Shown: positions 4,956 to 39,182, numbered from the stretch's first letter. The stretch: DNA of 64,000 nucleotides from a bacterium (GCA_021788365.1 JAJYKS010000001.1:137962-201961), one strand, 5' to 3'. Notes: a model not told the origin generated them from the letters alone. Numbers and translations: made by a program.

Positions 4956-6090
4956 GAAAGCACGACTTAAACTGACGGCGTGGTATTTGGCAATCATCAT
5001 GCTGGTGTCTGCCACTTTTTCGGTGGCCATCTATCGTGTGCTCATTACCGAAGTTATCCGCGTAGCCCGCAGTCAGCAAATGCGCATCGAACGACTCTAT
5101 TTCGGCCCCACTTACAATACCACGCTCCCGCCAACTATTTACTTTGATACCGATCTTTTGACCGAAACTCAGCGACGGCTCATTTTTAGCCTCATTCTTA
5201 TCAACAGCGGCATCTTCGTTTTAGCTGCGTCGGTTGGTTATATTCTGGCCGGTAAAACACTGTCTCCCATTCAGGAGATGATGGATGAACAGGGTCGGTT
5301 TATCTCTGACGCCTCACACGAGCTCAAAACTCCACTCACCGCGCTTAAAAGTAGTATGGAAGTATATCTCCGTGATCCGTCGCCCACACTCGACGAGGCA
5401 AAATCTGTTGTTACCGATAGCATTACCGATATCAACCGTTTGCAAGCCTTGTCTGAATCTCTTCTCGCGCTCTCCGCGTATCAGCAGCCACTTTCCTCGC
5501 AGCTATCGCTTACTACGACTACGCTCGGTGCGGCAGTTGCCCAAGCAATAGAGCGTACGCGTGCAAAAGCGGCACTTCGCCACATCACAGTGAAAACTGT
5601 TGGTGCGCCTGCGGCAAAAATGGTCATTCAGGCAGATCCGCCAAAGCTTGCTGACGCTGCTGTTATACTCCTCGATAATGCGATCAAATACAGCAAGCGT
5701 GGAGGCACCGTCACCATCCGAACGGCATTGCATGGAGATGTTGCGATTCTTAGCGTTGCTGACACTGGAATCGGTATTGCCGAGGCGGATCTACCCCACA
5801 TTTTTGATCGTTTCTATCGCGCTGACTCTGCTCGGACACATGCCGATGAGGGTGGGTATGGCCTTGGATTGTCTATCGCCCAACATATTGCCCATCTCCA
5901 TCAAGGTACTTTGATTGCAACGAGCCGCGCTGGTAAAGGGGCGACGTTTACCCTTTCTCTCCCCCGATCTCCCCGCCTGCAAAACATAATCTCTTCACCA
6001 TTCAGTACATTTTCAGCCGTACGGAGTAAAGTGGTCGCATATGCCAAAAAAATTGTCACTCCCCGTGCAACCGTCACCGGGCGCACATAA
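4948..6090 (+). CDS. Sensor histidine kinase
   Basis: Two N-terminal TM segments; H-box SHELKTPLTALKS; G-boxes DTGIGI and GGYGLGLSIA. Overlaps the RR gene by 8 bp. C-terminal roughly 45 aa tail uncertain. Confidence 0.85.
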   Translation: MFKKARLKLTAWYLAIIMLVSATFSVAIYRVLITEVIRVARSQQMRIERLYFGPTYNTTLPPTIYFDTDLLTETQRRLIFSLILINSGIFVLAASVGYILAGKTLSPIQEMMDEQGRFISDASHELKTPLTALKSSMEVYLRDPSPTLDEAKSVVTDSITDINRLQALSESLLALSAYQQPLSSQLSLTTTTLGAAVAQAIERTRAKAALRHITVKTVGAPAAKMVIQADPPKLADAAVILLDNAIKYSKRGGTVTIRTALHGDVAILSVADTGIGIAEADLPHIFDRFYRADSARTHADEGGYGLGLSIAQHIAHLHQGTLIATSRAGKGATFTLSLPRSPRLQNIISSPFSTFSAVRSKVVAYAKKIVTPRATVTGRT

Positions 6091-7405
6091 GCCGGAGGTA
6101 GTACCCGTTTCGGCCCTCAAAAAACAGCGGTCTACGCTTTTTGCGCGAATAGCAAAGCTACCGTTCACCTTAAAGATCGTCGGAGCACTTATCATTGTTT
6201 TTGCCCTTTGGTTTGGGTGGAGTAGGTTGCAGGCTGGAAAGGCGGGACAGCCAACCTACCAAACAGCACAGGCGGCGACCGGCGACCTCGTCGTGTCGGT
6301 GACGGGTAGCGGCAGCGTCACCGCAACCAATAATGTGACCGTCTCTACTCAGGCAACAGGAGTGGTAACAAAGGTATATGTAAAGGACGGTGATACTGTA
6401 AAGGCTGGACAAAAGTTGGCAGATCTAGAGCTTGACACCAATGGTCAGCAAAACTATGCCTCGGCACTTGCCAGCTATGAGGGTGCAAAAAATGCTCTTG
6501 CTTCGGCACAGAATGCACTCTACACATCACAGTCTTCCATGCTTTCCAAGTGGAACTCGTACTACAGTCTTGCAACCAACAACTATTATCAGGATAGCAG
6601 CGGCGCACCGCAGCACCGTACCGAACAACCTATTGTCCAGGCCCAGGACGATTGGCTCGCGGCAGAGGCCGCATATAAGCAGCAACAACAAACAATAGCG
6701 CAAGCACAGACGTCTCTGTCATCGAGCTATTTGTCTTACCTGCAACACACGCCATCAATATACGCACCTATTTCAGGAACTATCTCCGGATTCTCCCTTC
6801 AGAACGGGACGGTTGTCAATGCGACGACGAGTACCAGCGGGAGTAGTCTCGCCACCAAAATCGCGAGTGTGGTCACTGGCGCCAAGCCGTCTATTGTGAT
6901 TACGCTCACCGAAGTGGATATTACCAAAGTAAAAGCCGGTGACAAGGCAACCATTACCGCCGATTCCCAGCCAGATAAGACGTTTACCGGTAGAGTAGTG
7001 TCTGTCGATACGGTTGGCTCGGTTTCCTCGGGGGTCACCAGTTATTCTGTCTACCTTAGTCTCGATACCGATGAGCCCGATCTCTACCCCAACATGAGTG
7101 CGACAGCCAATATCATCACAAAAGTAGACAACAATGTCCTCACCGTTCCCTCGAGCGCAGTCACAACTGCAAACGGCGTCTCGACCGTACAAGTGATGAA
7201 GAATGGCGCCCCGCAAACGGTGACCGTGCAGACGGGCGATTCGAGCGACACCGACACTGTGATTACCTCGGGCCTCTCGGCCGGCGACACGGTGGTGACC
7301 GCGACCATTCAGCCTACTACCAGTTCGACCAGTAGCTCACAGCAGTCCGTGTTCAGCTCGTTCGGGGGACGCACTGGTGGCGCCACGCGAGTACTGTCGA
7401 GATAA
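6041..7405 (+). CDS. HlyD/MacA-family periplasmic adaptor (membrane fusion protein)
   Basis: N-terminal TM anchor, biotinyl/lipoyl-like hairpin (VTKVYVKDGDTVKAGQKLADLELD), long coiled-coil Q/A-rich stretch, beta-barrel C-terminal region. Annotated start overlaps the HK by 50 bp, so the true start may be downstream. Confidence 0.6.
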   Translation: MPKKLSLPVQPSPGAHKPEVVPVSALKKQRSTLFARIAKLPFTLKIVGALIIVFALWFGWSRLQAGKAGQPTYQTAQAATGDLVVSVTGSGSVTATNNVTVSTQATGVVTKVYVKDGDTVKAGQKLADLELDTNGQQNYASALASYEGAKNALASAQNALYTSQSSMLSKWNSYYSLATNNYYQDSSGAPQHRTEQPIVQAQDDWLAAEAAYKQQQQTIAQAQTSLSSSYLSYLQHTPSIYAPISGTISGFSLQNGTVVNATTSTSGSSLATKIASVVTGAKPSIVITLTEVDITKVKAGDKATITADSQPDKTFTGRVVSVDTVGSVSSGVTSYSVYLSLDTDEPDLYPNMSATANIITKVDNNVLTVPSSAVTTANGVSTVQVMKNGAPQTVTVQTGDSSDTDTVITSGLSAGDTVVTATIQPTTSSTSSSQQSVFSSFGGRTGGATRVLSR

Positions 7406-7428
7406 CTCGGATAATTCAGAAAGCCAGA

Positions 7429-8178
7429 ATGCCAAAAAACCAGAAAAATCAGACCGTCATCTCAGTTGAAAATATCTCAAAAGTTTACCAAGTGGGCGAA
7501 GTGGAGACGGTGGCTCTGGATACTGTGTCTTTTACGATCGCCAAGGGCGAGTTTGTGGCGATCATGGGACCATCGGGGTCAGGTAAGTCGACTTTGATGC
7601 ATATCCTCGGGGCGCTGGATACCCCCACATCTGGCACCTATACTTTAGACGGTGAACTCGTGTCCAGCCTCTCCGACGATGAGCTTGCTGATATACGCAA
7701 TCGCAAGATTGGGTTTATTTTCCAAGCTTTTAACCTCCTTCCCCGGACTACTGCCCTCCACAACGTGATGTTGCCCATGGCCTACGCCGGGATACCCGTG
7801 GCCGAGCGGGAGGAGCGGGCGGCGGATGCCCTCACCAAAGTAGGTCTTGCCAATCGCATACATCATTACTCTAATCAGCTTTCCGGTGGGCAACAGCAGC
7901 GGGTCGCGATTGCCCGTGGCATAGTCATGGATCCGGCAATTCTTCTGGCCGACGAGCCGACCGGTAATATCGCGAGCAATCAAGCGGATGAGGTGATGGA
8001 AATTTTCCATACCATCCACCGGCAGGGACACACCATAGTGATGATCACCCACGAACCGGATATCGCGGCACATGCGGAGCGGATATTGCATATAAAAGAT
8101 GGAAAACTTGTTAATGATGAGAGGAATACTCAGAAAACTCAGAGGGTCAGAAAGCCGGAGGACCGGAAGACCGGATAA
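7429..8178 (+). CDS. ABC transporter ATP-binding protein (MacB/LolD-like)
   Basis: Walker [13 protein letters not shown] signature [13 protein letters not shown], Walker [12 protein letters not shown]-loop ITHE. Confidence 0.9.
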
Positions 8179-8183
8179 CATAC

Positions 8184-9407
8184 ATGGATATACGAGAACA
8201 GGTTGTCGAATCATTCAGAACCCTGACCGTGAACAAGTTGCGGACGGGGCTTGCGATCCTGGGTATTGTTATCGGCATCGGGAGTGTGATCGCCCTCATA
8301 TCCCTTGGCCAAGGCAGCCAGCAGATGGTACAAAACCAAATACAGTCTTTGGGCGCAAACCTACTCACCGTGCAACCTGGTTTTTCCCAGTCTGGCAGTG
8401 TACGGGGGGCGGCCGGCGGCGGCACAACACTCACCCTTGACGATGCCCTTGCGCTTTCTACTGACCCCACTATTACCACGGTAAAAAACGTGAGCCCCGA
8501 AGTTTCGAGTAGACAGCAGGTGACGGCTGGGCGCAACAATGCCAACGAGCAGGTTTACGGGGTGTATCCCGCCTATGCCGATATACACAAAATCACGCTT
8601 TCGAGCGGCAGCTTCGTAACAACGAGCGACCTGGCTGCGCAGCGGAAGGTAGCAGTCATCGGCCCCCAAGTTGTTACTGATTTGTTTGCCACCGATGCGA
8701 ATCCTGTGGGACAGAAAATACGTGTTAAGGGCCAAGAATATACCGTCATCGGGGTCACGGCGAGTAAGGGCGGTACCGGCTTCCAAAACCAAGACGCCAT
8801 CATCTATATTCCCCTCTCTACCGCCCAAAAATCCATTACGGGTAGCAGTTCGATAAACTCGATTTCCGTCGAGGCTGCGAGTCAAGACGTCATGACCACG
8901 GCGGAGGACCAGGTTGGCTATGCTCTCTTGAAACGTCATAAAATAGCGGATCCAACGCAAGCCGATTTCTCCATTTTTTCCCAGCAAGACATATTGAATA
9001 CCGCCTCGTCTGTTACCGGTACGTTTACCTCGCTCCTGTCTGGCATCGCCGCAATATCGCTCCTCGTGGGCGGCATCGGGATCATGAACATCATGCTTGT
9101 CACCGTGACGGAGCGGACGCGGGAGATAGGCCTCAGGAAAGCGCTCGGGGCGAAGCGCGCGACCATTATCCGCCAGTTTTTGATTGAGTCCATTATCCTC
9201 ACCATTCTTGGCGGGTGTATTGGTATGGCGTTTGGTGCGACCGTATCATTTATTTTATCCAAGGTTCTCTCGATACCTTTTACGATTACCATGAGTTCTG
9301 TGCTTCTCTCTATCGGGGTATCCGGCGGGATTGGGATTATATTTGGATGGTATCCAGCTAGGACGGCGGCTAAACTGCAGCCCATTGAGGCGCTGCGGTA
9401 CGAATAG
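8184..9407 (+). CDS. ABC transporter permease, MacB/FtsX-like
   Basis: 407 aa; N-terminal TM, large periplasmic domain, C-terminal 3-TM FtsX-type domain (GIMNIMLVTVTERTREIGLRKALGA). Confidence 0.8.
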   Translation: MDIREQVVESFRTLTVNKLRTGLAILGIVIGIGSVIALISLGQGSQQMVQNQIQSLGANLLTVQPGFSQSGSVRGAAGGGTTLTLDDALALSTDPTITTVKNVSPEVSSRQQVTAGRNNANEQVYGVYPAYADIHKITLSSGSFVTTSDLAAQRKVAVIGPQVVTDLFATDANPVGQKIRVKGQEYTVIGVTASKGGTGFQNQDAIIYIPLSTAQKSITGSSSINSISVEAASQDVMTTAEDQVGYALLKRHKIADPTQADFSIFSQQDILNTASSVTGTFTSLLSGIAAISLLVGGIGIMNIMLVTVTERTREIGLRKALGAKRATIIRQFLIESIILTILGGCIGMAFGATVSFILSKVLSIPFTITMSSVLLSIGVSGGIGIIFGWYPARTAAKLQPIEALRYE

Positions 9408-9467
9408 AAGTTCAGAATAATTTCAGAAATTGCGAATAGAATGTGCTTATAAAGAAGGAGGGGCATA

Positions 9468-9968
9468 ATGGTAGCAAATAAAGCAGTTACGTATGTTTTG
9501 GTAGGAGTCGTTGCGGCCGGAGCGGGGTTTGGCGGGGGATATCTCTTCCGCAATTACCAGCTTGGACAGACCCGTACCCAGTTTGCTCGACAGTTTGGCG
9601 CAGGTGCCGGATCGGCCGGCGGTAGATTTTTGACAAATGGAACCGGTACTCCACGAGCTTCTGGTGGACAAGTCCTACGCATGGGAGGCAGGCCTGTCTC
9701 CGGCGACATAATTGCCGCGGACGCAAACTCCATCACGGTGAAAATGCCTGACGGCAGCAGCCGCATTGTACTCCTCTCCCCCTCGACACAGATCACCACA
9801 GCAACGGACGTGACCCGCGACAAACTCGCGACAGGGGTACGGGTGACGGTATTTGGGACCGACAACTCCGACGGCAGCGTTTCGGCTACCTCGGTACAGC
9901 TGGCTTCTCCTTCGACAAGCTCAGGACCTTCGGCTGCTGCGTCCATCTCGCCAGCGCCTACCCAGTAA
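9468..9968 (+). CDS. Hypothetical membrane-anchored/secreted protein
   Basis: AGGAGG RBS; N-terminal hydrophobic segment, Gly/Ser-rich; no recognisable catalytic motif. Confidence 0.45.
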   Translation: MVANKAVTYVLVGVVAAGAGFGGGYLFRNYQLGQTRTQFARQFGAGAGSAGGRFLTNGTGTPRASGGQVLRMGGRPVSGDIIAADANSITVKMPDGSSRIVLLSPSTQITTATDVTRDKLATGVRVTVFGTDNSDGSVSATSVQLASPSTSSGPSAAASISPAPTQ

Positions 9969-9995
9969 CGCCCGGCGCGTATACAATGAGGGAGC

Positions 9996-10799
9996 ATGGC
10001 AACCGATCATATTTTGACAGTCACCAATTTGACGAAGCGGTTCGGTACCTTTACCGCGGTTGATTCCGTGTCGTTTGCCGTCAAACGCGGAGAGATCTTT
10101 GCGTTCCTGGGTCCGAACGGCGCGGGGAAAAGTACGACCATCAAAATGGTGACGACGCTGCTCTCGCCCACATCCGGTGCTATCATATTAAACGGTCACG
10201 AGGCGGCGCATCATAAAGACGCCGTACGTAAATCTCTCGGCATAGTCTTCCAAGACCCAAGTCTGGACGACGACCTCACGGCCCAAGAAAATCTGGAGCT
10301 CCACGCCGCACTCTACCATACCCCGGTAAAAGAGCGAGCGGCACGGATTGAAAATCTCATGACATTTGTGGAGCTGTGGGACCGCAGGAACAGCCTGGTC
10401 AAGACTTTCTCGGGCGGTATGAAGCGACGACTGGAGATAGCCCGCGGCCTCCTTCACCACCCCCATATTCTGTTTCTCGATGAGCCGACCATCGGCCTCG
10501 ACCCCCAGACCCGCAACCACTTGTGGAGCTATATCAAAAAAGTGAACCGCGACGAGGGAATGACGGTGTTTCTCACCACTCATTATATGGAAGAGGCGGA
10601 GCGGGTAGCGGACCGTATCGCCGTCATCGACCACGGGAAGATTATCGCCGAAGGAACAGCCGGGTCCTTGAAAAAACAAACGAAGCAAACCAATTTGGAA
10701 GATGCGTTTCTGGCCCTCACTGGTCACGCTATACGTGACGAAGAAGCAACCGGCCTCGACCATATGCGAGCTCGACACCAGATGTGGAGGAGGCACTAA
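9996..10799 (+). CDS. ABC transporter ATP-binding protein (ABC-2 / DrrA-like)
   Basis: Walker A GPNGAGKST, signature FSGGMKRRLEIARGL, Walker B LFLDEPTIGLD. Confidence 0.9.
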   Translation: MATDHILTVTNLTKRFGTFTAVDSVSFAVKRGEIFAFLGPNGAGKSTTIKMVTTLLSPTSGAIILNGHEAAHHKDAVRKSLGIVFQDPSLDDDLTAQENLELHAALYHTPVKERAARIENLMTFVELWDRRNSLVKTFSGGMKRRLEIARGLLHHPHILFLDEPTIGLDPQTRNHLWSYIKKVNRDEGMTVFLTTHYMEEAERVADRIAVIDHGKIIAEGTAGSLKKQTKQTNLEDAFLALTGHAIRDEEATGLDHMRARHQMWRRH

Positions 10800-10801
10800 C
10801 T

Positions 10802-11554
10802 ATGGACTTTAGCACCATTTACATACTCTGGAAGCGGCAACTTATTAAGTATTTCCGTTCGCGGAGCCGTATTGTTGGTTCACTCGGCCAGCCCATCCTT
10901 TTTCTTGTGGCGTTTGGGTTTGGATTTGGCGGTGTATATCAGCGTGCGGGGGGCGGCAGCTATATGGAGTTTCTCGCTCCTGGGATTATTCTCATGAGCG
11001 TGCTCTTTACCGCCGTGTTTTCTGGGATAGACCTTATCTGGGACCGACAATTCGGATTCCTTAAAGAAACGATGGTGGCGCCTGTCCCGCGTTTGTCTAT
11101 TATGCTTGGTAAGACATTAGGTGGGGCGACGGTCGCGGTAATTCAAGGCCTCATCGTATTTTTGCTTACGTTTCTCTTTGGGTTTCATATAGCAAGTGCT
11201 CCCCTTCTCCTTGTTGCATTCTTTGCCGTTGTGCTCGTCGCTATCTTATTTACTTCCTTGGGTGTTGCCATTGCCTCTACGCTCGAGGATATGCAGGGAT
11301 TTCAACTCATCATGAATTTTCTTGTCATGCCTACCGTATTTTTGTCGGGGGCATTCTTTCCCCTCCAGGGACTGCCGACCCTCATGGAGTATGTCGTCAA
11401 AATAGACCCACTGACCTATGGGGTGGACGCTGTGCGTGGAGCGCTTATTGGTATCTCTTCTTTTGGTATGGCGCTCGACTTTGCTATCCTGATTGGGCTT
11501 TCTGTTGCTATGCTGGCTATTGGCAGCTACCTCTTCGAGAAAGTTCAAATTTAG
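10802..11554 (+). CDS. ABC-2 type transporter permease
   Basis: Six predicted TM helices. ATG 10802 directly follows GGAGGAGG RBS and the stop of the ATPase gene; the ORF-track start 10784 overlaps the upstream gene. Confidence 0.8.
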   Translation: MDFSTIYILWKRQLIKYFRSRSRIVGSLGQPILFLVAFGFGFGGVYQRAGGGSYMEFLAPGIILMSVLFTAVFSGIDLIWDRQFGFLKETMVAPVPRLSIMLGKTLGGATVAVIQGLIVFLLTFLFGFHIASAPLLLVAFFAVVLVAILFTSLGVAIASTLEDMQGFQLIMNFLVMPTVFLSGAFFPLQGLPTLMEYVVKIDPLTYGVDAVRGALIGISSFGMALDFAILIGLSVAMLAIGSYLFEKVQI

Positions 11555-11600: not shown

Positions 11601-12134
11601 ATGAAAAAGTACGCACAGTTCACTCTCGTTATAGTCGCGTTCTTCCTACTCGTGTGGATACGACAAGGTGAAAGTAACTCCGAACACACGGTGGCCCTAT
11701 CACCACAACAGGCGTCGCTCGTTGCAAGTGCGCCGCCGGGAAACGCCATCGCGAGTCCAGCCGCACCTCCCCCCTCAAATCCCACCCCAACACCAACGCC
11801 AACTGCCGCAGCCCAAACCACTACCCCCACTCCCACTCCTGCACCAAAGGGACAATATCGAGATGGTACCTACACCGGTAGTGTGGCAGATGCATTTTAT
11901 GGCAACATGCAGGTACAGGCGGTTATCTCTGGCGGGCGCCTCACCGCCGTCAATATCCTCCAATACCCGAACGATAACGGTACGTCACGCTCCATCAACA
12001 GCCAGGCTATCCCCATCCTCCAGTCCGAAGCGCTCCAAGCGCAAAGCGCTAATATCGATATGGTGTCCGGCGCCTCGGCCAGCTCTCCCGCCTTTCAGCA
12101 ATCGCTCCAATCTGCTTTGTCACAGGCAAGTTAA
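11601..12134 (+). CDS. Secreted FMN-binding domain protein
   Basis: Signal/anchor (LVIVAFFLLVW), Pro/Thr-rich linker, then FMN_bind-like domain containing the ApbE flavinylation motif DMVSGAS near the C-terminus. Confidence 0.65.
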   Translation: MKKYAQFTLVIVAFFLLVWIRQGESNSEHTVALSPQQASLVASAPPGNAIASPAAPPPSNPTPTPTPTAAAQTTTPTPTPAPKGQYRDGTYTGSVADAFYGNMQVQAVISGGRLTAVNILQYPNDNGTSRSINSQAIPILQSEALQAQSANIDMVSGASASSPAFQQSLQSALSQAS

Positions 12135-12137
12135 TGT

Positions 12138-12884
12138 ATGCGTATGACACGAACGACAATGGCAATGCCCGCCGCCGTCACCGCCCTTGACGCCCACGCG
12201 TCGGCGGATGATCTTGGGCGCGTATTCCACTTGTTTGACGAAGTTGACCAGAAATTCAGCGTTTTTCGTGACGAGAGTCCGGTTTCAAAGTACCGGCGGG
12301 GGGAGCGCACCCGCGACAGCTTCGACGAGGAAGAGCGCCATGTGTGGGACCTTTGCGAACAGACAAAACGGGAGACCGATGGATACTTTGACGCGTTTTA
12401 TGGCGGGACGTACGACCCCACCGGGCTCGTCAAGGGATATGCCATACGGCGTGGGGCCGAGCTTTTGCGCTCTCTCGGATATCGACAATTTCTCATAGAG
12501 ATCGCAGGGGATGGGGAGGCCGGGGAGAAATCGCGCGGCACCGGGTGGAAAGTCGGCATATCTAATCCCTTTAACACCCGCGAAATCGTAAAAGTCGTAC
12601 AGCTCTCCAACTGCGGCATTGCCACTTCCGGTATCGCCGAGCACCTGGATCACATTGTCGATCCGCACACCCATCAGCCTGCCCACGAACTGGCAAGTAT
12701 TACCGTCATCGCGCAAGACGCCGAGGAGGCAGACCGCTTTGCCACGGCGGCCTTCTCGATGGGCACAGCGGGACTCGCGTTTGTGGAGCAGCACACCCAC
12801 TGCGCGGCATACGCCGTGACGGCCGACCGGCGCGGGGTTGCGACTACACGATTTAAGAGTTACGAGGTAGCCAGTAACCTATGA
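12138..12884 (+). CDS. ApbE-family FAD:protein FMN transferase
   Basis: YDPTGLVKGYA, ATSGIAEHLDHIVDPHT motifs typical of ApbE. Shorter than typical ApbE at the N-terminus. Confidence 0.7.
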   Translation: MRMTRTTMAMPAAVTALDAHASADDLGRVFHLFDEVDQKFSVFRDESPVSKYRRGERTRDSFDEEERHVWDLCEQTKRETDGYFDAFYGGTYDPTGLVKGYAIRRGAELLRSLGYRQFLIEIAGDGEAGEKSRGTGWKVGISNPFNTREIVKVVQLSNCGIATSGIAEHLDHIVDPHTHQPAHELASITVIAQDAEEADRFATAAFSMGTAGLAFVEQHTHCAAYAVTADRRGVATTRFKSYEVASNL

Positions 12885-14413
12885 TGCAGATAATTGATCG
12901 CTTCCTCGATCGCACCACCATGTACCGTCTGACGGTCTACTACCTGGTCGCACTCCTCGGTATTGCCACGATATTTTCTGCTGGACACATTCTCACGTTC
13001 AACCCTTTAGACATTGCCATTTCTGTCACTGCCGCCCTAGCGACATGCCTCATCGGCAACGAGATCGCTGCAGCCGTATTTGGCGCGACCGCCAACACGG
13101 AGAGTAGCACCATCACCGCGCTCATTATGGCGCTTCTTATCCCGCCCACCTATCCCATGAATATCGTGGCAGTCGTGCTTGCCTCCGGGGCCGCGATCGC
13201 CTCCAAGTATCTTTTGACAGTGGAAAAACATCATGTGTTCAACCCGGTGGCAGCGGGAGCGGTGGCCCTCGCTCTCCTTACCCCATTCTCGGTGACTTGG
13301 TGGGTTGGTAGCCCGTGGATGCTGCCCTTTGTGGCACTGGGCGGGTGGGCAATCGTCCGTAAGACTCAGCGGGAGGATATGGTGGCGACGTTCCTCGTCA
13401 CTTTTTTCGCGATCACCACACTTTCGGTACTCTTTACCCGCCCCAGTTTCTCTAGCCTCACGACGGCGTGGATTGTCGGCTTTGTTCACTCCGCGCTCAT
13501 CTTTTTTGCTACCGTCATGTTTACCGAACCCTTAACCTCGCCGGGAACAAAGGCTGGACGCCGGTGGTTTGCCGTGGCAACTGCGCTTTTGTATGCGACA
13601 CCGCAAGTACCGCTGTTTGGCCAGGTATTTACCCCGGAGATGGCGCTTGTACTCGCCAACTTCGGCGCCTTTCTTTTGTGGCCGCATTACCGCTATACCT
13701 TGACCTTGGCTGCTAAAAAAATACTTGCTAAAGATGTATACGAATTCTCTTTTTACCTCCCGGAAGAAAAGATCACCTACCGCCCCGGTCAGTTTATGGA
13801 ATGGACGTTACCCCACAGCTCTGTCGATAATCGAGGTAATCGCCGCTATTTTAGTCTATCCTCTGCCCCCACAGAAAAAACCGTGAGCTTTGCGATAAAG
13901 TATTACGACCCGCCATCTAGCTACAAGCGGACACTCGTAGCAATGGAGCCTGGCGGTAGTATTATCGCAACTGATGTGGCGGGCGACTTTACCCTCCCCA
14001 AAAAATTGTCCCAGCCACTGGTTTTTGTTGCTGGCGGGATCGGGGTAGCACCGTTTCGGAGTATGCTCAAGGCGATTGTCGATCGTGGAGAGCGCGCCAA
14101 TCTCACCATCTTATATGTTAACCGCCACGCCGATGAAATTGCGTACAACGACCTTTTTATTCGCGCTGCTGGACTTGGGGTAAAGACGTACTACATTTTG
14201 ACCGATGCCAAGTCCCTTCCCCCCGGATGGAAGGGAGGGGTGGGACACGTTGACGCTAAGATGATTGCGCAGCTCGTCCCAGATTACCAGCGAGCTAGTT
14301 TTTATCTTTCTGGCCCTCAGCCGATGGTGGAGGCGGCTGCCTCGGCGCTTGCCAACCTATCAGTCCCTGACAAGCAGATCGTTACCGACTTTTTCCCCGG
14401 CTATGCCACTTGA
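12881..14413 (+). CDS. Membrane oxidoreductase: RnfD/NqrB-like polytopic domain fused to ferredoxin-NADP reductase-like FAD/NAD(P)-binding domain
   Basis: N-terminal roughly 270 aa with about 8 TM helices and FNPLD / FNPVAAG motifs; C-terminal RRYFSLSS (RxYS FAD-binding) and GGIGVAPF (NAD(P)-binding) motifs. Confidence 0.7.
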   Translation: MMQIIDRFLDRTTMYRLTVYYLVALLGIATIFSAGHILTFNPLDIAISVTAALATCLIGNEIAAAVFGATANTESSTITALIMALLIPPTYPMNIVAVVLASGAAIASKYLLTVEKHHVFNPVAAGAVALALLTPFSVTWWVGSPWMLPFVALGGWAIVRKTQREDMVATFLVTFFAITTLSVLFTRPSFSSLTTAWIVGFVHSALIFFATVMFTEPLTSPGTKAGRRWFAVATALLYATPQVPLFGQVFTPEMALVLANFGAFLLWPHYRYTLTLAAKKILAKDVYEFSFYLPEEKITYRPGQFMEWTLPHSSVDNRGNRRYFSLSSAPTEKTVSFAIKYYDPPSSYKRTLVAMEPGGSIIATDVAGDFTLPKKLSQPLVFVAGGIGVAPFRSMLKAIVDRGERANLTILYVNRHADEIAYNDLFIRAAGLGVKTYYILTDAKSLPPGWKGGVGHVDAKMIAQLVPDYQRASFYLSGPQPMVEAAASALANLSVPDKQIVTDFFPGYAT

Positions 14414-14462: not shown

Positions 14463-15077
14463 ATGGACTATAGCAAAGTTGCAAAAAAAGATGTCGTCGA
14501 ACATGTTATTGCAGAGCTTGCAAAGCGCAACATTGACGCGATATATGTACCTGATCGCGTTGCGGCAAAGGAAAAGGTATTGTCACTTATACCTAGCGGC
14601 GCCGAAGTTTTTACCATGAGCTCCATTACCCTTAAAGAAACCGGGATCGCCGACGCCATAAACAATTCTTCTGACTATGTGTCGGTGCGAAACAAACTGA
14701 ACGCCATGAACCGTGAGACTCAGAGCAGGGAGATGCAAGTCCTTGGCGCTGCGCCGCAGGTTGCTGTGGGGTCGGTTCATGCCGTGACCGAGGATGGAGA
14801 TATATATATAGCGAGCAACACGGGTAGTCAGCTCCCGGCGTACGCGTACGGGGCAGATCGCGTTATCTGGGTCGTGGGCACACAAAAGATCGTCCTCGAC
14901 GGGAAGGCCGCACTCGACCGCCTGGATACTTATATCCTCCCCAAGGAGTCGGTGCGTTTGTCGGAGCAGTACCACGCGCAGCTGACGTCCAATGTCAGCA
15001 AGCTACTCATTGTTCATAAGGAATTTACCCCAGGGCGGGTGACGGTTGTCTTTGTCGGTGAGCAGCTCGGATTCTAA
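14463..15077 (+). CDS. LUD-domain (LutC/YkgG-like) protein
   Basis: 204 aa with LUD-domain-like layout; AGGAGG RBS upstream. Confidence 0.55.
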   Translation: MDYSKVAKKDVVEHVIAELAKRNIDAIYVPDRVAAKEKVLSLIPSGAEVFTMSSITLKETGIADAINNSSDYVSVRNKLNAMNRETQSREMQVLGAAPQVAVGSVHAVTEDGDIYIASNTGSQLPAYAYGADRVIWVVGTQKIVLDGKAALDRLDTYILPKESVRLSEQYHAQLTSNVSKLLIVHKEFTPGRVTVVFVGEQLGF

Positions 15078-15152: not shown

Positions 15153-15581
15153 ATGCGAGACTCTATCATTAGTAAAGTCATAGCTGGTGTTTTGACCACC
15201 GCGTCCATCGCGACCAGCGTGGGGGCAGGTTACAAAGTATTTGCAGAGCACAATAGCGCTCCAGCACCGGTTCCGACTATTGCCGAATCGTCACCTTTAC
15301 CAACGTCTTCCCCGGAAGTACTTGGGACAGAGATAAAGGCGTCTGAAAAGACCGAGGCTACTGCGACACCTACACCAAGTGCGAGTGCGAGCCCCACCCC
15401 TAGCGCATCGCCGAGCGTAAGTCCGCTCCCCTCATTTTCTCCTATGCCGTCGTTTACCCCAGGTAAGTTCGACGATTCCTCGGACGACAGCGTGGAGATT
15501 GAAGATCAGCACGTGCACGTCGGAGTCAACGCTTCGACAACTACCTCGGTTTCACCCACCCCTGAAGCAGGTGATAACTAA
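15153..15581 (+). CDS. Hypothetical secreted Pro/Ser/Thr-rich protein
   Basis: N-terminal hydrophobic segment; low-complexity PTPSASASPTPSASPS repeats; AGGAGG RBS. Confidence 0.4.
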   Translation: MRDSIISKVIAGVLTTASIATSVGAGYKVFAEHNSAPAPVPTIAESSPLPTSSPEVLGTEIKASEKTEATATPTPSASASPTPSASPSVSPLPSFSPMPSFTPGKFDDSSDDSVEIEDQHVHVGVNASTTTSVSPTPEAGDN

Positions 15582-25589: not shown

Positions 25590-26627
25590 CTATTTCAGAA
25601 GATAAGGTGCAAACTGATCGATGTTTTGACCGACAACAAAGCGGGCAAATTCTACAGCGCCATTGGCTTCGTAATATTCGCGTGCTTCTTCTATAAAACG
25701 AGTAATTGTTTGCGATACGGAAAAGTCTGCGCTTTGCGGCATTTGTACCGCGCGATCGTAATATGCCTGGCCCATTTCTTCTTTAACCCATGGATTTTGT
25801 CGTACCAAGAAGTTCCCTTTTTCTTCTGTCGCCATTTCCGGATGTGGTTGGATTTGGTACAGGACTGCGCCATTTGAGAAGGTTATTTTGCTCGCTTGGA
25901 TAAAAGTGCTATCTTGTTGTTGTAGTCCGTTTTCATCTAGATAACCACGCCTGACGGCGAGCGTGTCCGCTGCAATTACCACTATTTCTCCCCGTGCTGT
26001 TTGCACCTGAGTACCGACTTTAGGTAGTTCTGCCACGTAGTCACTATGTAGATGAGGGGCATAGAATGTTTCTGGTAATCGCCCGAATATTTTGTCTTGT
26101 TTTCCAGCTTCTGTTAACTCCTGTGCAAGCCACCCCGCTTCCGTTACCGTTTGTCCGTATGAATTTTCGGGCAATCTCCCAATTTTCCCACCGACTGCGT
26201 GGACGGCTAGCTGTCCGCCAAAACAGATTCCAAATACCCACTTCCCCTCGCCGAGTTCGTTCCGTACGGCAGCCTCGCCTCTATCCAATGCCTCCTTGTC
26301 CTCTGCAGAAAATGCAGATGGGTCACCCTCTTGAAATTTGTACATCGACATTCCCGAGCCACTGAGGATTAATGCATCATTGTTATTTATCGCTTTCGCG
26401 TTCTCAACATTTCCGAGCAGGGTTCGGAAGAACCATGGTTGATTTGCCCGGAACCATACAGATCCCTTTGGGAGTTGTCTTGCAATATTGAGGGGATACT
26501 GTCGCTTATCCGCAAGTAGTGGTTTTAGTTCGTCAGGAATGCCGATTTCTGTTGCCTGATCCTGTGCCATTCGCGATGGGTTGAAATCAATGATCTGAAC
26601 GTCAAATGTTTCTTTTTTGCTAGACAT
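25590..26627 (-). CDS. Class I glutamine amidotransferase-like protein
   Basis: GICFGGQ nucleophile-Cys motif and downstream PHPE (His/Glu) typical of GATase1. Confidence 0.65.
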   Translation of the reverse strand: MSSKKETFDVQIIDFNPSRMAQDQATEIGIPDELKPLLADKRQYPLNIARQLPKGSVWFRANQPWFFRTLLGNVENAKAINNNDALILSGSGMSMYKFQEGDPSAFSAEDKEALDRGEAAVRNELGEGKWVFGICFGGQLAVHAVGGKIGRLPENSYGQTVTEAGWLAQELTEAGKQDKIFGRLPETFYAPHLHSDYVAELPKVGTQVQTARGEIVVIAADTLAVRRGYLDENGLQQQDSTFIQASKITFSNGAVLYQIQPHPEMATEEKGNFLVRQNPWVKEEMGQAYYDRAVQMPQSADFSVSQTITRFIEEAREYYEANGAVEFARFVVGQNIDQFAPYLLK

Positions 26628-26718
26628 GACTATATTTTATCAAGATCCATTCGTTCATCTGAGCTTAACCAGATGGTTAAAAGGAATGATTCTGCACTAT
26701 TTTGTTCAATAATTTTAT

Positions 26719-27240
26719 CTATTTATTTATTGGTAAAGTTTTTTCTACCCTCGTGGCAAATTGCATCTTTAGAGCTTCGTCGGTACTCAAAATTTTTCCT
26801 TTATCAAAGGTCTTTCTGATGTTTTTCACCTTTGGTAGTTCCGCTGCCAATATCTCAAAATATCGATCATCTATCTGTCGTAAGAAGTTTGTTGTTTCGG
26901 ATTGTACGGAAATTACCTGTGACTGCTGAGGGCCGTTATAAGTTGGGGGGTGAAACCTTACCCTGCAATTTTCAATTAATGTTTTTTCCTTTCCGGATAG
27001 AAACAATATAATAGCTGCTGAATCTACTTGACCAAAACCTACTGTGTTAAGATTTAATCTTGTAGCTTTGACAAAATCATAAAACCGGATGGCCGAGTCA
27101 ATATCGCCACCTGTGGACGATATGTAAAGAGTAACTTTTACGTTTGGGTCAACGTATAATTGTTTTAATATATCGATAATTGCATCGCCTACGCTTTTTT
27201 CAGTAACCGAACACGGGAACATATACCAATATTTGTTCAT
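26719..27240 (-). CDS. ClpP/S14-like serine protease fold protein
   Basis: YISSTGGDIDSA (INSPGG-like), GFGQVDSAAIILFLSG (GxAASMG-like catalytic Ser region), RFHPP (IHQP-like His). AT-rich gene. Confidence 0.5.
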   Translation of the reverse strand: MNKYWYMFPCSVTEKSVGDAIIDILKQLYVDPNVKVTLYISSTGGDIDSAIRFYDFVKATRLNLNTVGFGQVDSAAIILFLSGKEKTLIENCRVRFHPPTYNGPQQSQVISVQSETTNFLRQIDDRYFEILAAELPKVKNIRKTFDKGKILSTDEALKMQFATRVEKTLPINK

Positions 27241-27316
27241 GATTTAATTTACAATTTTAACAAATTTTTACTTTTAGTATAGCAATGCATGCCTCGGACT
27301 GTTATGAACTGAGATC

Positions 27317-28186
27317 TTATCTATCTATCCTAACTAGCGATCTACCAGGCGTTATCCATTTTTGCGTAACAATTTCTATTAACTTTGAGAAAGGCTCTGC
27401 GTTTACCACCTGAAATAACTCCTGCGCTTCTCTTGTCATTAGGACCTCTCCAACAGCAAACTCTATCTTCTCTTCGTTAGTATTAATAACATAAATCTCA
27501 TTACCGCATTGCACTGGTATTGTTTTGGCAGAACCGACCGTTAGCTTAAAACCACTAATACTGTTAAAGTGGATTAATCCCAGACTTTCTAAGTGCTGGA
27601 GATCCTCAAAGGAAAATGTTCCATTGCTGTATTTAGCCTCTGAAGGGTCAGGAAAAATTAAGGGAACTTTTCTACCCCCGCCAACTATTGCAGTATAACC
27701 GCATATTCTTGAGAAAAGATTCGCATCATCCTGTCGCATATTAGCAAGTATGGACATTGTCTTGTACGAATAGCTTCCATTTCTTATAAATTCACCTGAT
27801 AATACTTTTGACCAAATATTTTGCATTTCTTCATTCGAAATATCTTGCGAAAAATTAAAATATTTCCTGACCCAATCAGTGTCAACTTGTTGATCTATAG
27901 GTTTTCCGCTTTCATGGAGATTTTTAAGAGCTTTTTCGGTAATTTGGTTGATATTCTTTTGATGAATTGTTTCAAGGTTCGCTAACCGATATAAGGCTTG
28001 TCTTTGTAGTCTTGAAACATTTATATCACCCTTCGCTTTTATAATTGAAGCATCAGATTCTGCTTTTGCTTTTCGTCTTATTTTAGTTGGCTCATATAAC
28101 GTATACCCAGCATGTGCAATAATATCGAGCGCTTTTGTAATTGTCTTACTTTCTATATCTATATGAAACGCTAATGGGTTTGCCAT
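27317..28186 (-). CDS. Hypothetical protein (AT-rich accessory gene)
   Basis: 289 aa; no confident motif. Confidence 0.4.
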   Translation of the reverse strand: MANPLAFHIDIESKTITKALDIIAHAGYTLYEPTKIRRKAKAESDASIIKAKGDINVSRLQRQALYRLANLETIHQKNINQITEKALKNLHESGKPIDQQVDTDWVRKYFNFSQDISNEEMQNIWSKVLSGEFIRNGSYSYKTMSILANMRQDDANLFSRICGYTAIVGGGRKVPLIFPDPSEAKYSNGTFSFEDLQHLESLGLIHFNSISGFKLTVGSAKTIPVQCGNEIYVINTNEEKIEFAVGEVLMTREAQELFQVVNAEPFSKLIEIVTQKWITPGRSLVRIDR

Positions 28187-28249
28187 GTTTTTAGCCTTAT
28201 CTATGTTTACAAGATGGCTGGCGCTCCTGAACTATGTGGGAACGTGGTA

Positions 28250-29041
28250 TCAGGTGGCGAGCGTATCTTGATAGTGAGACCACAATATGGGAGAGAACTG
28301 ACTCATCGCCTCTTTTACTTCCGCATATTCTGTGTGATTATTCTCTTCCTTCTCAATCCCATCGGACAGTACGTGACCCAGTACTCTGTCAGCATCCCCA
28401 TCAGCAACAGTAACCGATTCTGCGACTATTGCTAGGAGTTGTGCCGGTGTCGCTGCCCGTGATATAGCCTCATCGAGGATATTGAGGGCTTTGTCATATC
28501 GCTCCCACGACCGCTCACCACCCCACGTTCGCTCGTCATCTCCCCAACCGATCTCTTCAATGAGTGTTCGGGAGAGCGCATAGAGAACCAGACCCGAAAG
28601 TGAAGACATTTCATGCTCGTGTGACGCTGGAACCCTTCCTGGTTCGTAGTACCCCACGGGTTCATCCGACAAACGCGTCTTGGGAGTCGTCAAAGCAGCA
28701 TATAGCTCATTTTTCCCAGCTGCTTTCACTTTCTCTAGCACGTCTCCGGTCACAAAATCACACTCATCGTATCTGCGGCGGGTTATCGCGATACCGTGTG
28801 TCTCAATCTCTTCGACGGAGGGCTCTGGCTGTTCTTTACCATCGTGTTCTTTCCACCATTTCAGCCATTCTTGCCCGTAATAAGCAACAACGCCATCTGG
28901 CTGGGGGCAAGCATGTCTCCAGGCTGAAATGTAGAGTCGCTCCTTTGGAGTAAACTCATCAATCCTAGGATCATCCCCAAGGAACGTGCTGCTCCCAAAA
29001 TCTTTAGGTGTAAGGAATTCCTGTATGTCTGGTTTAGGCAT
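28250..29041 (-). CDS. Hypothetical acidic protein (GC-rich ORF inside AT-rich flank)
   Basis: 263 aa, Trp/Glu-rich; no recognisable domain; composition about 55% GC, unlike neighbours. Confidence 0.4.
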   Translation of the reverse strand: MPKPDIQEFLTPKDFGSSTFLGDDPRIDEFTPKERLYISAWRHACPQPDGVVAYYGQEWLKWWKEHDGKEQPEPSVEEIETHGIAITRRRYDECDFVTGDVLEKVKAAGKNELYAALTTPKTRLSDEPVGYYEPGRVPASHEHEMSSLSGLVLYALSRTLIEEIGWGDDERTWGGERSWERYDKALNILDEAISRAATPAQLLAIVAESVTVADGDADRVLGHVLSDGIEKEENNHTEYAEVKEAMSQFSPILWSHYQDTLAT

Positions 29042-29071
29042 GAGTGTATTATACCCTATAACGCAATCATT

Positions 29072-29101
29072 GCCTGGGAGGTTCGAATCCTTACCCGCCT
29101 T
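29072..29101 (+). other. tRNA-like 3' fragment (T-arm GGAGG-TTCGAAT-CCTTA plus acceptor 3' strand); possible att scar
   Basis: GGTTCGAATCC T-loop consensus on + strand with partial 4-bp stem. The upstream sequence does not fold into a full cloverleaf. Sits at the GC-to-AT composition switch. Confidence 0.3.
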
Positions 29102-29252
29102 ACACTAGTTTGATCTAGTCACTCCAGAGGGGGACCAAGAGCTGCGGGGTACGGTCTAGCACCGTTTCGTCCGTATAGTCATTGTCTCACATCCAGGGTA
29201 AATGAGACAAATGGGACAGTACTTGACTACTTAATTGATTAATATTAATGAT

Positions 29253-30425
29253 CTATTTTGATATATTAGATTGACGATCCTTCCTGAATAACAATCCATA
29301 TAGATAAATTACCGGGAGTGAAAGTATTGTCAAAATAACCAAAGCTTTGGGAGGACCCATGATATCAGCCATTCCACCCAAGAATATGCTCATAACGGTA
29401 AACCCGAGGCTACCACCAAGTGAATTAAGCGAACTCATGGTTGCTCTTTCATGATCGCTAAATTCTTTTTGCATAAGAGTTTTTTCCGATACTGACCCAA
29501 CTCCATACAATAGTGATGGTGCAGCCAAGATTATTGGGGAAAGAACTGTCGGGAACCCGTAAGCGAATAGGCTTACTACTCTGCCAAAAATGCTATCGAA
29601 TAAGAGTATTCTTATTTCTTTGAATTTTCGAATCAGCTTGCCACTAAAAAAGTAACTAAGAGATGCCCCAAAACTTGGTAAGGTTCTAGCTATACCAATT
29701 GCCCAAAGTGGCCAGACGATAGCGGTAAAAGCAGAAGAAAATTCCCATTTGATTTCATTTATGGAATACTCCCAGATAGAAGCTAAACTTAGAAGTCGAA
29801 GTTTCTCATTATGAATAAATAGTCTAAAAGCATTATCAATATGAGCGTAGATATTGGAACTCGTGTGAGTGCGTGGGCGTGGATCAATAAATTGATAGCT
29901 AATATAAAGCGCCGCAATTCCTAAGATAACTGATATCCACAACAAGTAGTGAAATGAGAAACTTGCAACAATTCCTCCAAGGATTGCTGATAATCCCATG
30001 GCGAGTTGTTCGGTTGAACTAACTTTACCCTGATATCCATGGAACTCGCTTTCCAGATGATTATCGGCCAGAGTGTCATAGAGAAAGGCATCGTTGTTGC
30101 CACTGTATAGTGACCGGGATAGACCTTCGAAAATAGCGCCGATGACTAGCCACCAATATGAGGAGCCCACTGCATAAAATATTAAAGCTATAACACGTGA
30201 CCAGGATCCAAGGATAATTGTGACTTTGCGACCAACACGATCAGACCAGATACCAGTTGGTATTTCAAATAAGGCAGAGGTAAGCGTAGTAATACCGAAA
30301 ATCGATGCCCCTAACGCAAAAGAACCAGAGACTCGTGAAAAATAGATGATAGCAAGAGGAGCAAAAAGACTAAATCCAGTAAGGAAGTTGAAAATTGAAA
30401 GTAAATGAACATTTTTCCGGTACAT
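29253..30425 (-). CDS. MFS transporter (possible exporter of cluster product)
   Basis: 390 aa; 12 TM; GIWSDRVGRK MFS motif A. Confidence 0.75.
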   Translation of the reverse strand: MYRKNVHLLSIFNFLTGFSLFAPLAIIYFSRVSGSFALGASIFGITTLTSALFEIPTGIWSDRVGRKVTIILGSWSRVIALIFYAVGSSYWWLVIGAIFEGLSRSLYSGNNDAFLYDTLADNHLESEFHGYQGKVSSTEQLAMGLSAILGGIVASFSFHYLLWISVILGIAALYISYQFIDPRPRTHTSSNIYAHIDNAFRLFIHNEKLRLLSLASIWEYSINEIKWEFSSAFTAIVWPLWAIGIARTLPSFGASLSYFFSGKLIRKFKEIRILLFDSIFGRVVSLFAYGFPTVLSPIILAAPSLLYGVGSVSEKTLMQKEFSDHERATMSSLNSLGGSLGFTVMSIFLGGMADIMGPPKALVILTILSLPVIYLYGLLFRKDRQSNISK

Positions 30426-30467
30426 ATGAAAAGTATATATGGATCAGTGCCTAGTTCGTCTAGGAAA

Positions 30468-31238
30468 CTAGAGCTGTATTTTATTGTTATTAAATTTCTC
30501 TAAGATCTTGATTTCGTTTGACCATATCTCATTTATATTTGGTCCTTTATATAGAATTTCTTGAACCATTTGCAGCATAGGATTATTCTGGTTCGACAAG
30601 TTGAGGTCCAATTTCAGGTTATCTCTTGTAATATATTTATTCATTAAGTCACATCTGACAATTTCTCCTGTCGACATATATAGCAGTAGCTCTCGCTTAG
30701 GATCGCTTGAATATCCCACTTCTATGTCCCACGGAATATTTTTCCCTGATACTAAGTAGAAATACAGATCCACTTCATGTATACCAAGGTCGAAAACTGG
30801 ACCTTCTAAATTAGCTCTATTGGGTTGGAAGCCGAATCTACTACTTCGTATTTTCGAAACGTGGGAAAGATCGACGTTCTTTTTGATAAATGAGACTACT
30901 GGATTATATCTTTCAAGGGTAGATTGGTATAGGATTTTCCCTCTCTCCTCAGCTAAGTTTTCAAGGTTGAGAGATTTATTAACCGATAGACATATAGGTT
31001 TTTCAACAAGTACATTGTAATCACTTTCTAATAAGGTTTTGGCAATGGAGAAATGTGTTTCTGATGGGGTAGAGACGATAACAAGATCAACTGCTGGATG
31101 CATTGAGACAAAGTCTTCTACTGATCTGAAATATGCTTTGTTAGCTATCGAAACAACGTCCACTATGTAATCAGCCGAAATGGCCTTATCATAGTATTTC
31201 CCCATTTTCCCATAACCAATAATGGCGAATTTGGACAT
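30468..31238 (-). CDS. Gfo/Idh/MocA-family NAD(P)-dependent oxidoreductase
   Basis: N-terminal Rossmann GxGxxG (IIGYGKMG); EKP motif (LVEKPI) typical of sugar dehydrogenases of this family. Confidence 0.7.
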   Translation of the reverse strand: MSKFAIIGYGKMGKYYDKAISADYIVDVVSIANKAYFRSVEDFVSMHPAVDLVIVSTPSETHFSIAKTLLESDYNVLVEKPICLSVNKSLNLENLAEERGKILYQSTLERYNPVVSFIKKNVDLSHVSKIRSSRFGFQPNRANLEGPVFDLGIHEVDLYFYLVSGKNIPWDIEVGYSSDPKRELLLYMSTGEIVRCDLMNKYITRDNLKLDLNLSNQNNPMLQMVQEILYKGPNINEIWSNEIKILEKFNNNKIQL

Positions 31239-31239
31239 A

Positions 31240-33293: not shown

Positions 33294-33294
33294 A

Positions 33295-34020: not shown

Positions 34021-34029
34021 TTTGGTCTT

Positions 34030-36753: not shown

Positions 36754-36781
36754 AAAAAATATTAGTAGTAAAATATGCTCT

Positions 36782-39168: not shown

Positions 39169-39182
39169 TATAAAATTAGATC

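Follow-up and report, generated by a model that had tools for sequence, protein, structure and literature searches.

A three-gene NQR/RNF-like flavin module with a leaderless ApbE in a candidate phyla radiation bacterium: a probable transmembrane electron conduit

A 64-kb stretch of a bacterial genome (GCA_021788365.1 JAJYKS010000001.1:137962-201961) was analyzed; it is referred to as the window, and all positions are counted within it. The source organism is a bacterium of the candidate phyla radiation (CPR; Patescibacteria). Three tightly packed plus-strand open reading frames (ORFs) fill positions 11601-14413, i.e., ORF1 for a flavin mononucleotide (FMN)-binding protein, ORF2 for an ApbE-type flavin transferase, and ORF3 for an NqrB/RnfD-like membrane domain fused to an FNR-type reductase (Table 1). 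The module is a member of the NQR/RNF-like class, which has been known since 2021 as a bioinformatic prediction from genomes, and its recognition here is a rediscovery. It is read as a two-subunit transmembrane electron conduit of this class that is encoded together with its own flavin transferase, and the probability of this reading is put at roughly 0.7. The locus adds one instance to the class. What remains of interest is the leaderless ApbE and how broadly the module appears to occur across CPR.

All three genes are real. Co-directional ORFs were found exactly where the original prediction, i.e., an earlier annotation of this DNA, had drawn a three-gene unit. Identical proteins in the same arrangement were present in two independent assemblies, ENA ERZ27233565 and Logan SRR13170411, and because these agree, the stop codons are not sequencing errors. 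The five Pfam families named for the unit (PF04205, PF02424, PF03116, PF00175, and PF00970) were all matched above their curated cutoffs. Since the matches exceed these cutoffs and the trio recurs in at least 61 independent loci, chance is excluded.

The genes are closely packed. The stop codon of ORF1 (TAA) is followed by a 3-nt gap, i.e., one codon, before the start of ORF2, and ORF2 overlaps ORF3 by 4 nt (ATGA). Across the 61 loci, the ApbE gene starts 2-16 nt past the FMN_bind stop or overlaps it. ORF1 and ORF2 share a reading frame, with TAA and one codon between them (TAATGTATG, window 12132-12140). A read-through fusion of the two was considered and rejected. The same-frame single-stop arrangement was seen in 12 of the 61 loci, i.e., no more than the one-in-three chance level, and the others overlap in other frames. 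The junction is an ordinary case of translational coupling. The promoter and terminator scan gave nothing useful.

ORF3 matched PF03116 (NQR2_RnfD_RnfE) at 37.6 bits against a cutoff of 27.7. Its reductase part, which ends in FFPGY, matched PF00175 (E = 8.7e-15) and also PF00970. AlphaFold2 models had a mean predicted local distance difference test score of 86.7 for full ORF3 and 86.6 for the membrane domain alone. The membrane domain was modelled apart, as matches to the FNR domain dominated the Foldseek result for full-length ORF3. The top 15 Foldseek neighbours of the membrane-domain model in PDB were all RnfD or NqrB, with query-normalised TM-scores (TMq) of 0.58-0.73, i.e., 0.69-0.73 for RnfD and 0.58-0.66 for NqrB. 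The profile of this domain gave a marginal match to PDB sequences by hmmsearch (E = 0.36). The profile of the FNR part matched cytochrome b5 reductase and the flavin adenine dinucleotide (FAD) domains of NqrF at E = 1e-19 to 1e-15, and Foldseek with the full-length model agreed, the C-terminal half of ORF3 resembling the FAD/NAD modules of flavohaemoglobin, NqrF, and cytochrome b5 reductase. Pfam, fold, and motifs confirm the proposed joining of an NqrB/RnfD-like domain to an FAD-NAD(P)H module of the RxYS/GGIGVAPF type. The mean column identity among relatives was 65%.

The original prediction had also placed LASGAAI (ORF3 residues 100-106) where NqrB and RnfD carry the flavinylated SGAT threonine, and this placement did not hold. 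In the hhalign profile alignment with E. coli RsxD, LASGAAI aligns with LGTVFAVIIAK, a helix located before NPFNPA. T187 of RsxD (GISQAT187PLD) lies within an extracytoplasmic insert of about 85 residues, and this insert is missing from the ORF3 family, which keeps a short loop of about 14 residues at that position (TPFSVTWWVGSPWM). Alignment of the family profile with PDB sequences of V. cholerae NqrB and A. vinelandii RnfD led to the same result, and SGA at ORF3 residues 100-106 is not conserved among relatives. The idea of LASGAAI as a degenerate flavinylation site is ruled out by its alignment to a transmembrane helix. The claim of a membrane domain that lacks a covalent-flavin site still stands, on the deleted loop instead of LASGAAI. 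A non-conserved NqrB/RnfD flavinylation site has already been reported by Huang et al. 2024 (PMC10979944; this paper and PMC8238504 are cited here for the passages searched). The conserved SATWW (T139, in a short external loop; SVTWW in the window) was tried as an alternative flavinylation site and judged unlikely, as its spacing misfits D-x-x-[ST]-G-A-[ST].

The orientation of ORF3 in the membrane was derived from charge distribution. Loops were assigned from the model helices, and Lys and Arg were counted over 30 homologues. The predicted inside loops had 10.6 Lys+Arg on average and the outside loops 1.7. By the positive-inside rule, the N-terminus and the FNR reductase of ORF3 are in the cytoplasm, the side on which the reductase had been expected.

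ORF1 matched PF04205 (FMN_bind) at 28 bits with a cutoff of 22, and its residues 90-176 matched 8P2A, i.e., SaFMN3-D2 with covalent FMN on Thr, at E = 7e-14. The fold and the ApbE acceptor motif claimed for the first gene were thus both recovered. The acceptor motifs align as IDMVSGASASS in ORF1 and IDAVSGATYTS in 8P2A, and Ser159 is predicted to bear FMN covalently as a phosphoester. The definition of the motif was taken from a review (PMC12052999). [ST]GA[ST] was retained in 76 of 77 homologous FMN_bind domains, and the leading Asp was often Asn, Ser, or Gln. Because a D-to-A change in the acceptor motif has only minor effects according to the same review, variation at the first position is tolerable.

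The N-terminal part of ORF1 explains how the FMN domain would be held. ORF1 starts with MKKYAQ and continues with a hydrophobic helix of 14 residues and a tether of about 60 residues rich in Pro, Thr, and Ala, after which the FMN domain begins. The pattern MKK[FY]xLSxxVIxxFxxYA is common to the 77 FMN_bind homologues, and their tethers are of low complexity and variable in length, i.e., about 30-120 residues. The homologues have K/R, a hydrophobic helix, and then a neutral or acidic flank. The N-terminus of ORF1 (MKKYAQFTLVIVAFFLLVWIRQGES) has no Cys or lipobox, and it has no obvious cleavage site. This pattern points to a signal anchor of N-in/C-out topology that places the FMN domain outside the membrane, and the conservation of the anchor sequence suggests that it packs specifically against the membrane subunit. 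The protein had been called secreted in the original prediction. The outside location is indicated, but the protein is better called membrane-anchored, given that its N-terminal helix is conserved and that neither a lipobox nor an obvious cleavage site is seen. Tat export of a pre-folded, pre-flavinylated ORF1 was rejected, as a twin-arginine motif was found in just one of the 77 N-termini. PDB matches of ORF1 to designed armadillo-repeat proteins (phmmer, E down to 7e-11) were also set aside as spurious; they are repeat-summed and do not represent homology. They stem from a short stretch like 'GNEQIQAVIDAGALPALVQLLSSPN' in ORF1 residues 96-132 (window about 11886-11996).

ORF2 was assigned as the ApbE flavin transferase, as originally proposed, by its match to PF02424 (E = 7e-38, 131 bits, cutoff 25.6), and it matched ApbE structures in PDB with E down to 5e-32. 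Residues S164, H172, and D199 are invariant in 26 homologues, and in the alignment with E. coli ApbE they fall on its ATSG...H..DP...D segment. The conserved catalytic Ser/His/Asp of ApbE are S241/H257/D285 in V. cholerae (PMC12052999). Because these residues are kept, ORF2 is probably active as an FMN transferase. Compared with E. coli ApbE, ORF2 is without about 50 residues of helical insert, and its best 120 database homologues are all 222-262 amino acids (aa) long.

ORF2 has no signal peptide, lipobox, or hydrophobic segment; a stop codon is located one codon upstream, and the ApbE fold starts near residue 8. The missing export signal had escaped the original prediction. The ApbEs of all 61 loci are short, at about 245 aa, and lack a signal peptide, and no hydrophobic segment was found upstream of the ApbE fold in any of these loci. 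A hidden upstream signal peptide was considered and rejected, since the stop-to-stop ORFs leave at most 8 residues in about 25 loci and the longer frames are non-hydrophobic. Divergent or distally encoded ApbEs of the system, among them the divergent ones in loci L064 and L071, are leaderless as well.

The module is widespread. A word-indexed search gave more than 1000 full-length ORF3 homologues, and the named ones were almost all from Patescibacteria, i.e., Saccharimonadales, Levyibacteriota, and others. In species-representative genomes, at least 421 loci were confirmed, including loci of Chloroflexota, Thermoleophilia, and Dormibacterota. When only the membrane domain was used as query in an exhaustive HMMER search, 1249 clusters at 50% identity were obtained. 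Most of these proteins are about 500 aa long, so the fusion is carried. The order FMN_bind, ApbE, fusion gene was found in all 61 loci in which the three genes could be placed, in four groups, i.e., Patescibacteria, Chloroflexota, Thermoleophilia, and Dormibacterota. In neighbour-gene clustering, just the three module genes were conserved. E. coli RsxA, RsxB, RsxC, RsxE, and RsxG were searched by phmmer and had no match in the window (E up to 1), nor any in 80 related loci within 6 kb upstream or downstream of the fusion gene. Pfam scans of the other window genes showed no nqr/rnf components. The module thus stands without other nqr/rnf subunits over the range searched, a point on which the original prediction had asked for a check.

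The class itself was described by Meheust et al. 2021 (eLife, PMC8238504). In that paper, the "NQR/RNF-like system" is a flavinylation-associated gene cluster that encodes one protein with an N-terminal NqrB/RnfD-like membrane domain (PF03116) and a cytosolic C-terminal PF00175 domain. It was reported mainly from Actinobacteria and CPR, and 127 genomes were originally counted. The occurrence in CPR is reported both there and in PMC10979944. The present locus has the PF03116-PF00175 fusion, the adjacent FMN_bind and ApbE genes, and no conserved flavinylated Thr. Huang et al. 2024 (PMC10979944) modelled the homologous complex of Ktedonobacter by AlphaFold-multimer with two subunits only. In their model, the covalent FMN of the NqrC/RnfG-like subunit comes near an apparent non-covalent flavin site of the membrane subunit. 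The published hypothesis and this model agree with the conduit reading (PMC8238504, PMC10979944).

The proposed path of electrons is as follows. NAD(P)H would reduce the FAD of the cytoplasmic FNR domain of ORF3, and electrons would cross the membrane via the NqrB/RnfD-like domain, presumably through one or more non-covalent flavins. They would then reach the FMN on Ser159 of the tethered outside domain, where it would have been installed by the translationally coupled ApbE. The reduced FMN domain would pass the electrons to an extracytoplasmic acceptor that the module does not encode, which could be O2, Fe(III), a component of a host surface, or a soluble mediator. Owing to its long flexible tether, the FMN domain could move back and forth between the membrane subunit and acceptors farther away. 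A minimal route from NAD(P)H through a membrane flavoprotein to an extracytoplasmic flavoprotein was what the original prediction had put forward, and the domains, fold, topology, motif conservation, and lack of linked rnf/nqr genes all fit it.

CPR bacteria have no respiratory chains, and their NAD(P)H balancing is poorly understood. In such a cell, the conduit would discharge electrons, either to regenerate NAD(P)+ or for protection. Occurring across many CPR lineages, a compact flavin conduit from NAD(P)H to the outside could plausibly act as an electron outlet of general use, as a reductase of oxygen or iron, or in host interaction. The SaFMN3 domain of 8P2A carries covalent FMN with an Em of -184 mV, and its re-oxidation by O2 proceeds at 1.2 per second (PMC10339131). 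From this potential and O2 reactivity, O2, Fe(III), free flavins, and host-surface molecules are all plausible acceptors.

Several points weigh against the conduit. The ApbE is without a signal or anchor in 61 of 61 loci and is thus encoded for the side of the membrane opposite to its predicted substrate domain. No conserved gene for a terminal reductase or acceptor was linked to the module in related loci. The NQR/RNF-like class is a prediction from genomes, and the redox cofactors of the membrane domain are presumed ones. The view covers 64 kb and leaves room for an exported second ApbE or for nqr/rnf genes elsewhere in the genome.

The first of these points poses a sharp question, i.e., where and how the covalent flavin is installed. 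ApbEs are typically exported lipoproteins, and in Salmonella the enzyme had to be periplasmic to function; where ApbEs are cytosolic, the known substrates are cytosolic too (PMC12052999). The acceptor residue of ORF1 lies about 20 residues from the C-terminus, the genes are translationally coupled, and ApbE accepts terminal tags of seven residues (PMC12052999). On these grounds it is tentatively proposed, as a possibility short of an expectation, that FMN could be attached in the cytoplasm to the unfolded C-terminal tail of ORF1 and that the flavinylated chain could then be exported via Sec. If true, this would be a previously undescribed route of extracytoplasmic cofactor loading, FAD export would be unnecessary in flavin-scavenging organisms, and CPR bacteria would have a widespread redox outlet in this module. 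Otherwise, the ApbE may be exported by a non-classical route, a second, exported ApbE may be encoded elsewhere in the genome, or the FMN domain may face the cytoplasm, matching the leaderless ApbE. Genes without a signal peptide or lipidation site were discarded by Meheust et al. 2021, after which CPR were "strikingly underrepresented" (PMC8238504). The under-representation of CPR in extracytosolic flavinylation might partly be an artefact of this filter.

The inward-facing FMN domain leads to an explanation in which the whole chain is cytoplasmic, i.e., the FMN_bind protein is flavinylated inside by the leaderless ApbE and the membrane domain is a mere anchor or sensor. The missing export signal of ApbE in the 61 loci and in the best 120 database homologues would be explained at once, and cytosolic pairs of ApbE and substrate are documented, as for the fumarate reductase of Klebsiella (PMC12052999). 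However, the charge pattern of the FMN_bind proteins indicates N-in/C-out, Pro/Thr/Ser-rich tethers are typical of extracytoplasmic proteins, and homologous FMN domains are outside in NQR and RNF. A ten-helix RnfD fold with an internal reductase would also have no evident purpose if nothing crossed the membrane. This arrangement is considered unlikely.

It is also improbable that the module is a miniature ion pump in which NAD(P)H oxidation is coupled to Na+ or H+ translocation and energy is conserved. The NqrB/RnfD fold does belong to ion-translocating complexes, and polar or charged intramembrane residues, i.e., N60, N72, E74, K109, H118, E216, and E253, are invariant in the relatives of ORF3. 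However, NqrD/E, RnfA/E, and the intramembrane Fe-S centre are absent at the locus, and no quinone or ferredoxin site is evident. The published analysis favours unidirectional, uncoupled electron flow in NQR/RNF-like systems (PMC8238504).

A role in flavin handling was judged quite improbable. Here the NqrB fold, which is urea-transporter-like, would move flavin, and FNR and ApbE would reduce or process it, for salvage or as a ferric/flavin reductase for iron uptake. Urea transporters were the next Foldseek neighbours of the membrane domain after RnfD and NqrB, but these matches were weak (E above 0.3, TMq about 0.4). Metal transporters are found in the surroundings, i.e., VIT1 iron transporters in six such clusters (Meheust et al., PMC8238504) and a ZIP metal transporter 8 kb downstream of the present module. 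Against this, the strictly conserved acceptor motif of the FMN_bind protein points to a covalent-flavin redox protein and not to cargo. Finally, a dispersed fragment or decaying remnant of a full nqr/rnf operon, for which the 64-kb limit of the view leaves room, is highly improbable, given that at least 61 loci have this three-gene unit, each time with the FNR fusion and lacking the flavinylated loop, that the family fills 1249 clusters at 50% identity, that RsxA/B/C/E/G were missing around the fusion gene as described, and that the strong conservation speaks against decay.

Table 1. Genes, domains, and motifs of the flavin module (positions within the window)
Feature	Position	Strand	Basis or detail
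ORF1, FMN_bind protein, NqrC/RnfG-like subunit, 177 aa	11601-12134	+	PF04205; 8P2A match; conserved gene order
N-terminal anchor helix of ORF1, FTLVIVAFFLLVWI, preceded by KK	11619-11660	+	Kyte-Doolittle 17-residue maximum 2.27; 2 K/R ahead
Pro/Thr/Ala-rich low-complexity tether, anchor to FMN domain	11676-11867	+	read from sequence
ApbE acceptor motif DMVSGAS, ORF1 residues 153-159	12057-12077	+	D-x-x-[ST]-G-A-[ST]
Predicted FMN-phosphoester residue, Ser159	12075-12077	+	18 residues before ORF1 C-terminus
ORF2, short leaderless ApbE-type FAD:protein FMN transferase, 248 aa	12138-12884	+	PF02424; ApbE structures
ORF3, NqrB/RnfD-like and FNR fusion, 510 aa	12881-14413	+	PF03116, PF00970, PF00175
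NqrB/RnfD-like membrane domain, about 10 transmembrane helices, without flavinylated-Thr loop	12881-13684	+	PF03116; AlphaFold2; Foldseek; hhalign
Cytoplasmic FNR-type module (FAD-binding barrel and NAD(P)H-binding domain)	13694-14413	+	PF00970, PF00175
RRYFS, ORF3 residues 321-325, FAD-binding barrel	13841-13855	+	motif
GGIGVAPF, ORF3 residues 385-392, NAD(P)H-binding domain	14033-14056	+	motif

Other genes recur near the module in a minority of loci. The most frequent were a MacB-type ABC ATPase (18 loci), response regulators (17), and a MacA-like adaptor (13), followed by an FtsX permease and DUF5666 (9 each), an ECF sigma factor (8), MsrA/MsrB (5-6), and a 2-hydroxyacid dehydrogenase (5); MarR and two-component systems were also among them. 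In the window, a MacA-like adaptor, a MacB-type ABC ATPase, an FtsX permease, and a small DUF5666 membrane protein adjoin the module (6041-11554). These genes recur beside it in 9-18 of about 76 loci of different CPR lineages, often together with a two-component system (e.g., loci L018, L022, L029, L032, L042, L045, L074, and L079). A functional link between the MacAB-type exporter genes and the flavin module is possible.

The methionine sulfoxide reductases MsrA/MsrB flank the module in 5-6 loci, and an NAD-dependent 2-hydroxyacid (lactate-type) dehydrogenase lies directly upstream in five; loci with one or the other are L006, L032, L063, L064, L065, L071, and L072, and also L017, L042, L043, L075, and L078. 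In the window, a LUD-domain (lactate-utilisation-type) gene was located directly downstream (14463-15077), and it is not conserved in related loci. These neighbours are weak hints of an oxidative-stress or lactate/NAD-balance context. Between the LUD gene and a two-component system, a 142-aa ORF (15153-15581) encodes an N-terminal hydrophobic segment and a Pro/Ser/Thr-rich body with no Pfam match. This ORF is called as a gene in other assemblies.

Other gene groups were identified elsewhere in the window. Two tandem paralogous Peptidase_S51 genes of the cyanophycinase/dipeptidase E family (772-2057) lie beside genes for a NUDIX hydrolase and MscL. At about 26 kb, the guanine-cytosine (GC) content falls from 50-56% to 36-40%, and a low-GC block extends over 26600-43600. 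It contains preQ0/7-deazaguanine genes, i.e., FolE (35166-35747), QueD/PTPS (34739-35254), a QueE-like radical SAM enzyme (34030-34749), and QueC (42519-43193). Genes for a DegT aminotransferase, a PIG-L deacetylase, several GT4/GT2 glycosyltransferases, a GFO/MocA oxidoreductase, an MFS transporter, and two more radical SAM enzymes were also found in it. The block looks like a horizontally acquired biosynthetic cluster for a 7-deazapurine sugar or nucleoside, which is unusual in a CPR genome.

A mobile-element or defence-like block follows at 44302-56604, and the sole tRNA of the window is nearby (59835-59905). The block encodes a 500-aa protein with PD-(D/E)XK and RNase H-like domains, a 1529-aa AAA_11/AAA_12 helicase with an MTES_1575 restriction-endonuclease domain, a ParB_N and N6/N4 DNA methylase fusion, a terminase-like protein (DEAD and Terminase_6C), and a large serine recombinase (55300-56604).

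The module was compared with known flavin-based systems. It shares with Na+-NQR (NqrA-F) and RNF (RnfABCDGE) the NqrB/RnfD fold, an FMN domain of NqrC/RnfG type, flavinylation by ApbE, and a FAD/NADH domain like that of NqrF. However, it has two subunits instead of six, and NqrA/D/E (RnfA/B/C/E) were not found at the locus. It is without the intramembrane Fe-S centre and without a 2Fe-2S domain on the reductase, which is fused directly to the NqrB-like domain, and the loop with the flavinylated Thr is deleted. Electron flow through the module is probably one-way outwards and not semicircular.

In Listeria, flavin-based extracellular electron transfer uses Ndh2, demethylmenaquinone (DMK), EetA/B, PplA, and FmnB. 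The likeness lies in a monoderm-type cell, a transferase of the ApbE family, NADH as the ultimate donor, and a small surface-tethered FMN_bind domain as the last protein carrier. In the present module, a single fusion of NqrB-like domain and FNR takes the membrane step, whereas Listeria has Ndh2, quinone, and EetA/B. The lipoprotein PplA carries two FMN domains; ORF1 has one domain, a transmembrane anchor, and no Cys lipobox. FmnB is exported, and ORF2 is leaderless. The original prediction had likened the unit to a stripped-down NQR/RNF or to Gram-positive flavin-based extracellular electron transfer with FmnB and PplA. The relation to NQR/RNF was borne out, but neither a PplA-type lipoprotein nor an exported FmnB is present in the module.

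Two further systems resemble single components. The cytoplasmic ApbE of Klebsiella pneumoniae, which matures fumarate reductase, has no signal peptide, as in ORF2. Its substrate is a soluble cytoplasmic enzyme, whereas the predicted substrate domain of ORF2 is extracytoplasmic. SaFMN3 and CbFMN4 (8P2A, 8P2B; PMC10339131) gave the best sequence match to the FMN domain and have the same motif position, an N-terminal anchor, and flexible linkers. They have three to four tandem domains with covalent FMN on the last residue of the motif, which is Thr, whereas ORF1 has a single domain and Ser.

The closest relative is the NQR/RNF-like system itself. Its architecture is identical, and no architectural difference was found. 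Two features of the present family, i.e., the uniformly short leaderless ApbE and a small 8P2A/PplA-like FMN domain on a long flexible tether, are not mentioned in the searched passages of PMC8238504 and PMC10979944, and the literature searched beyond these papers had nothing specific on ApbE in CPR. The family is apparently larger than the 127 genomes of the original count, with at least 421 confirmed loci and 1249 clusters at 50% identity.

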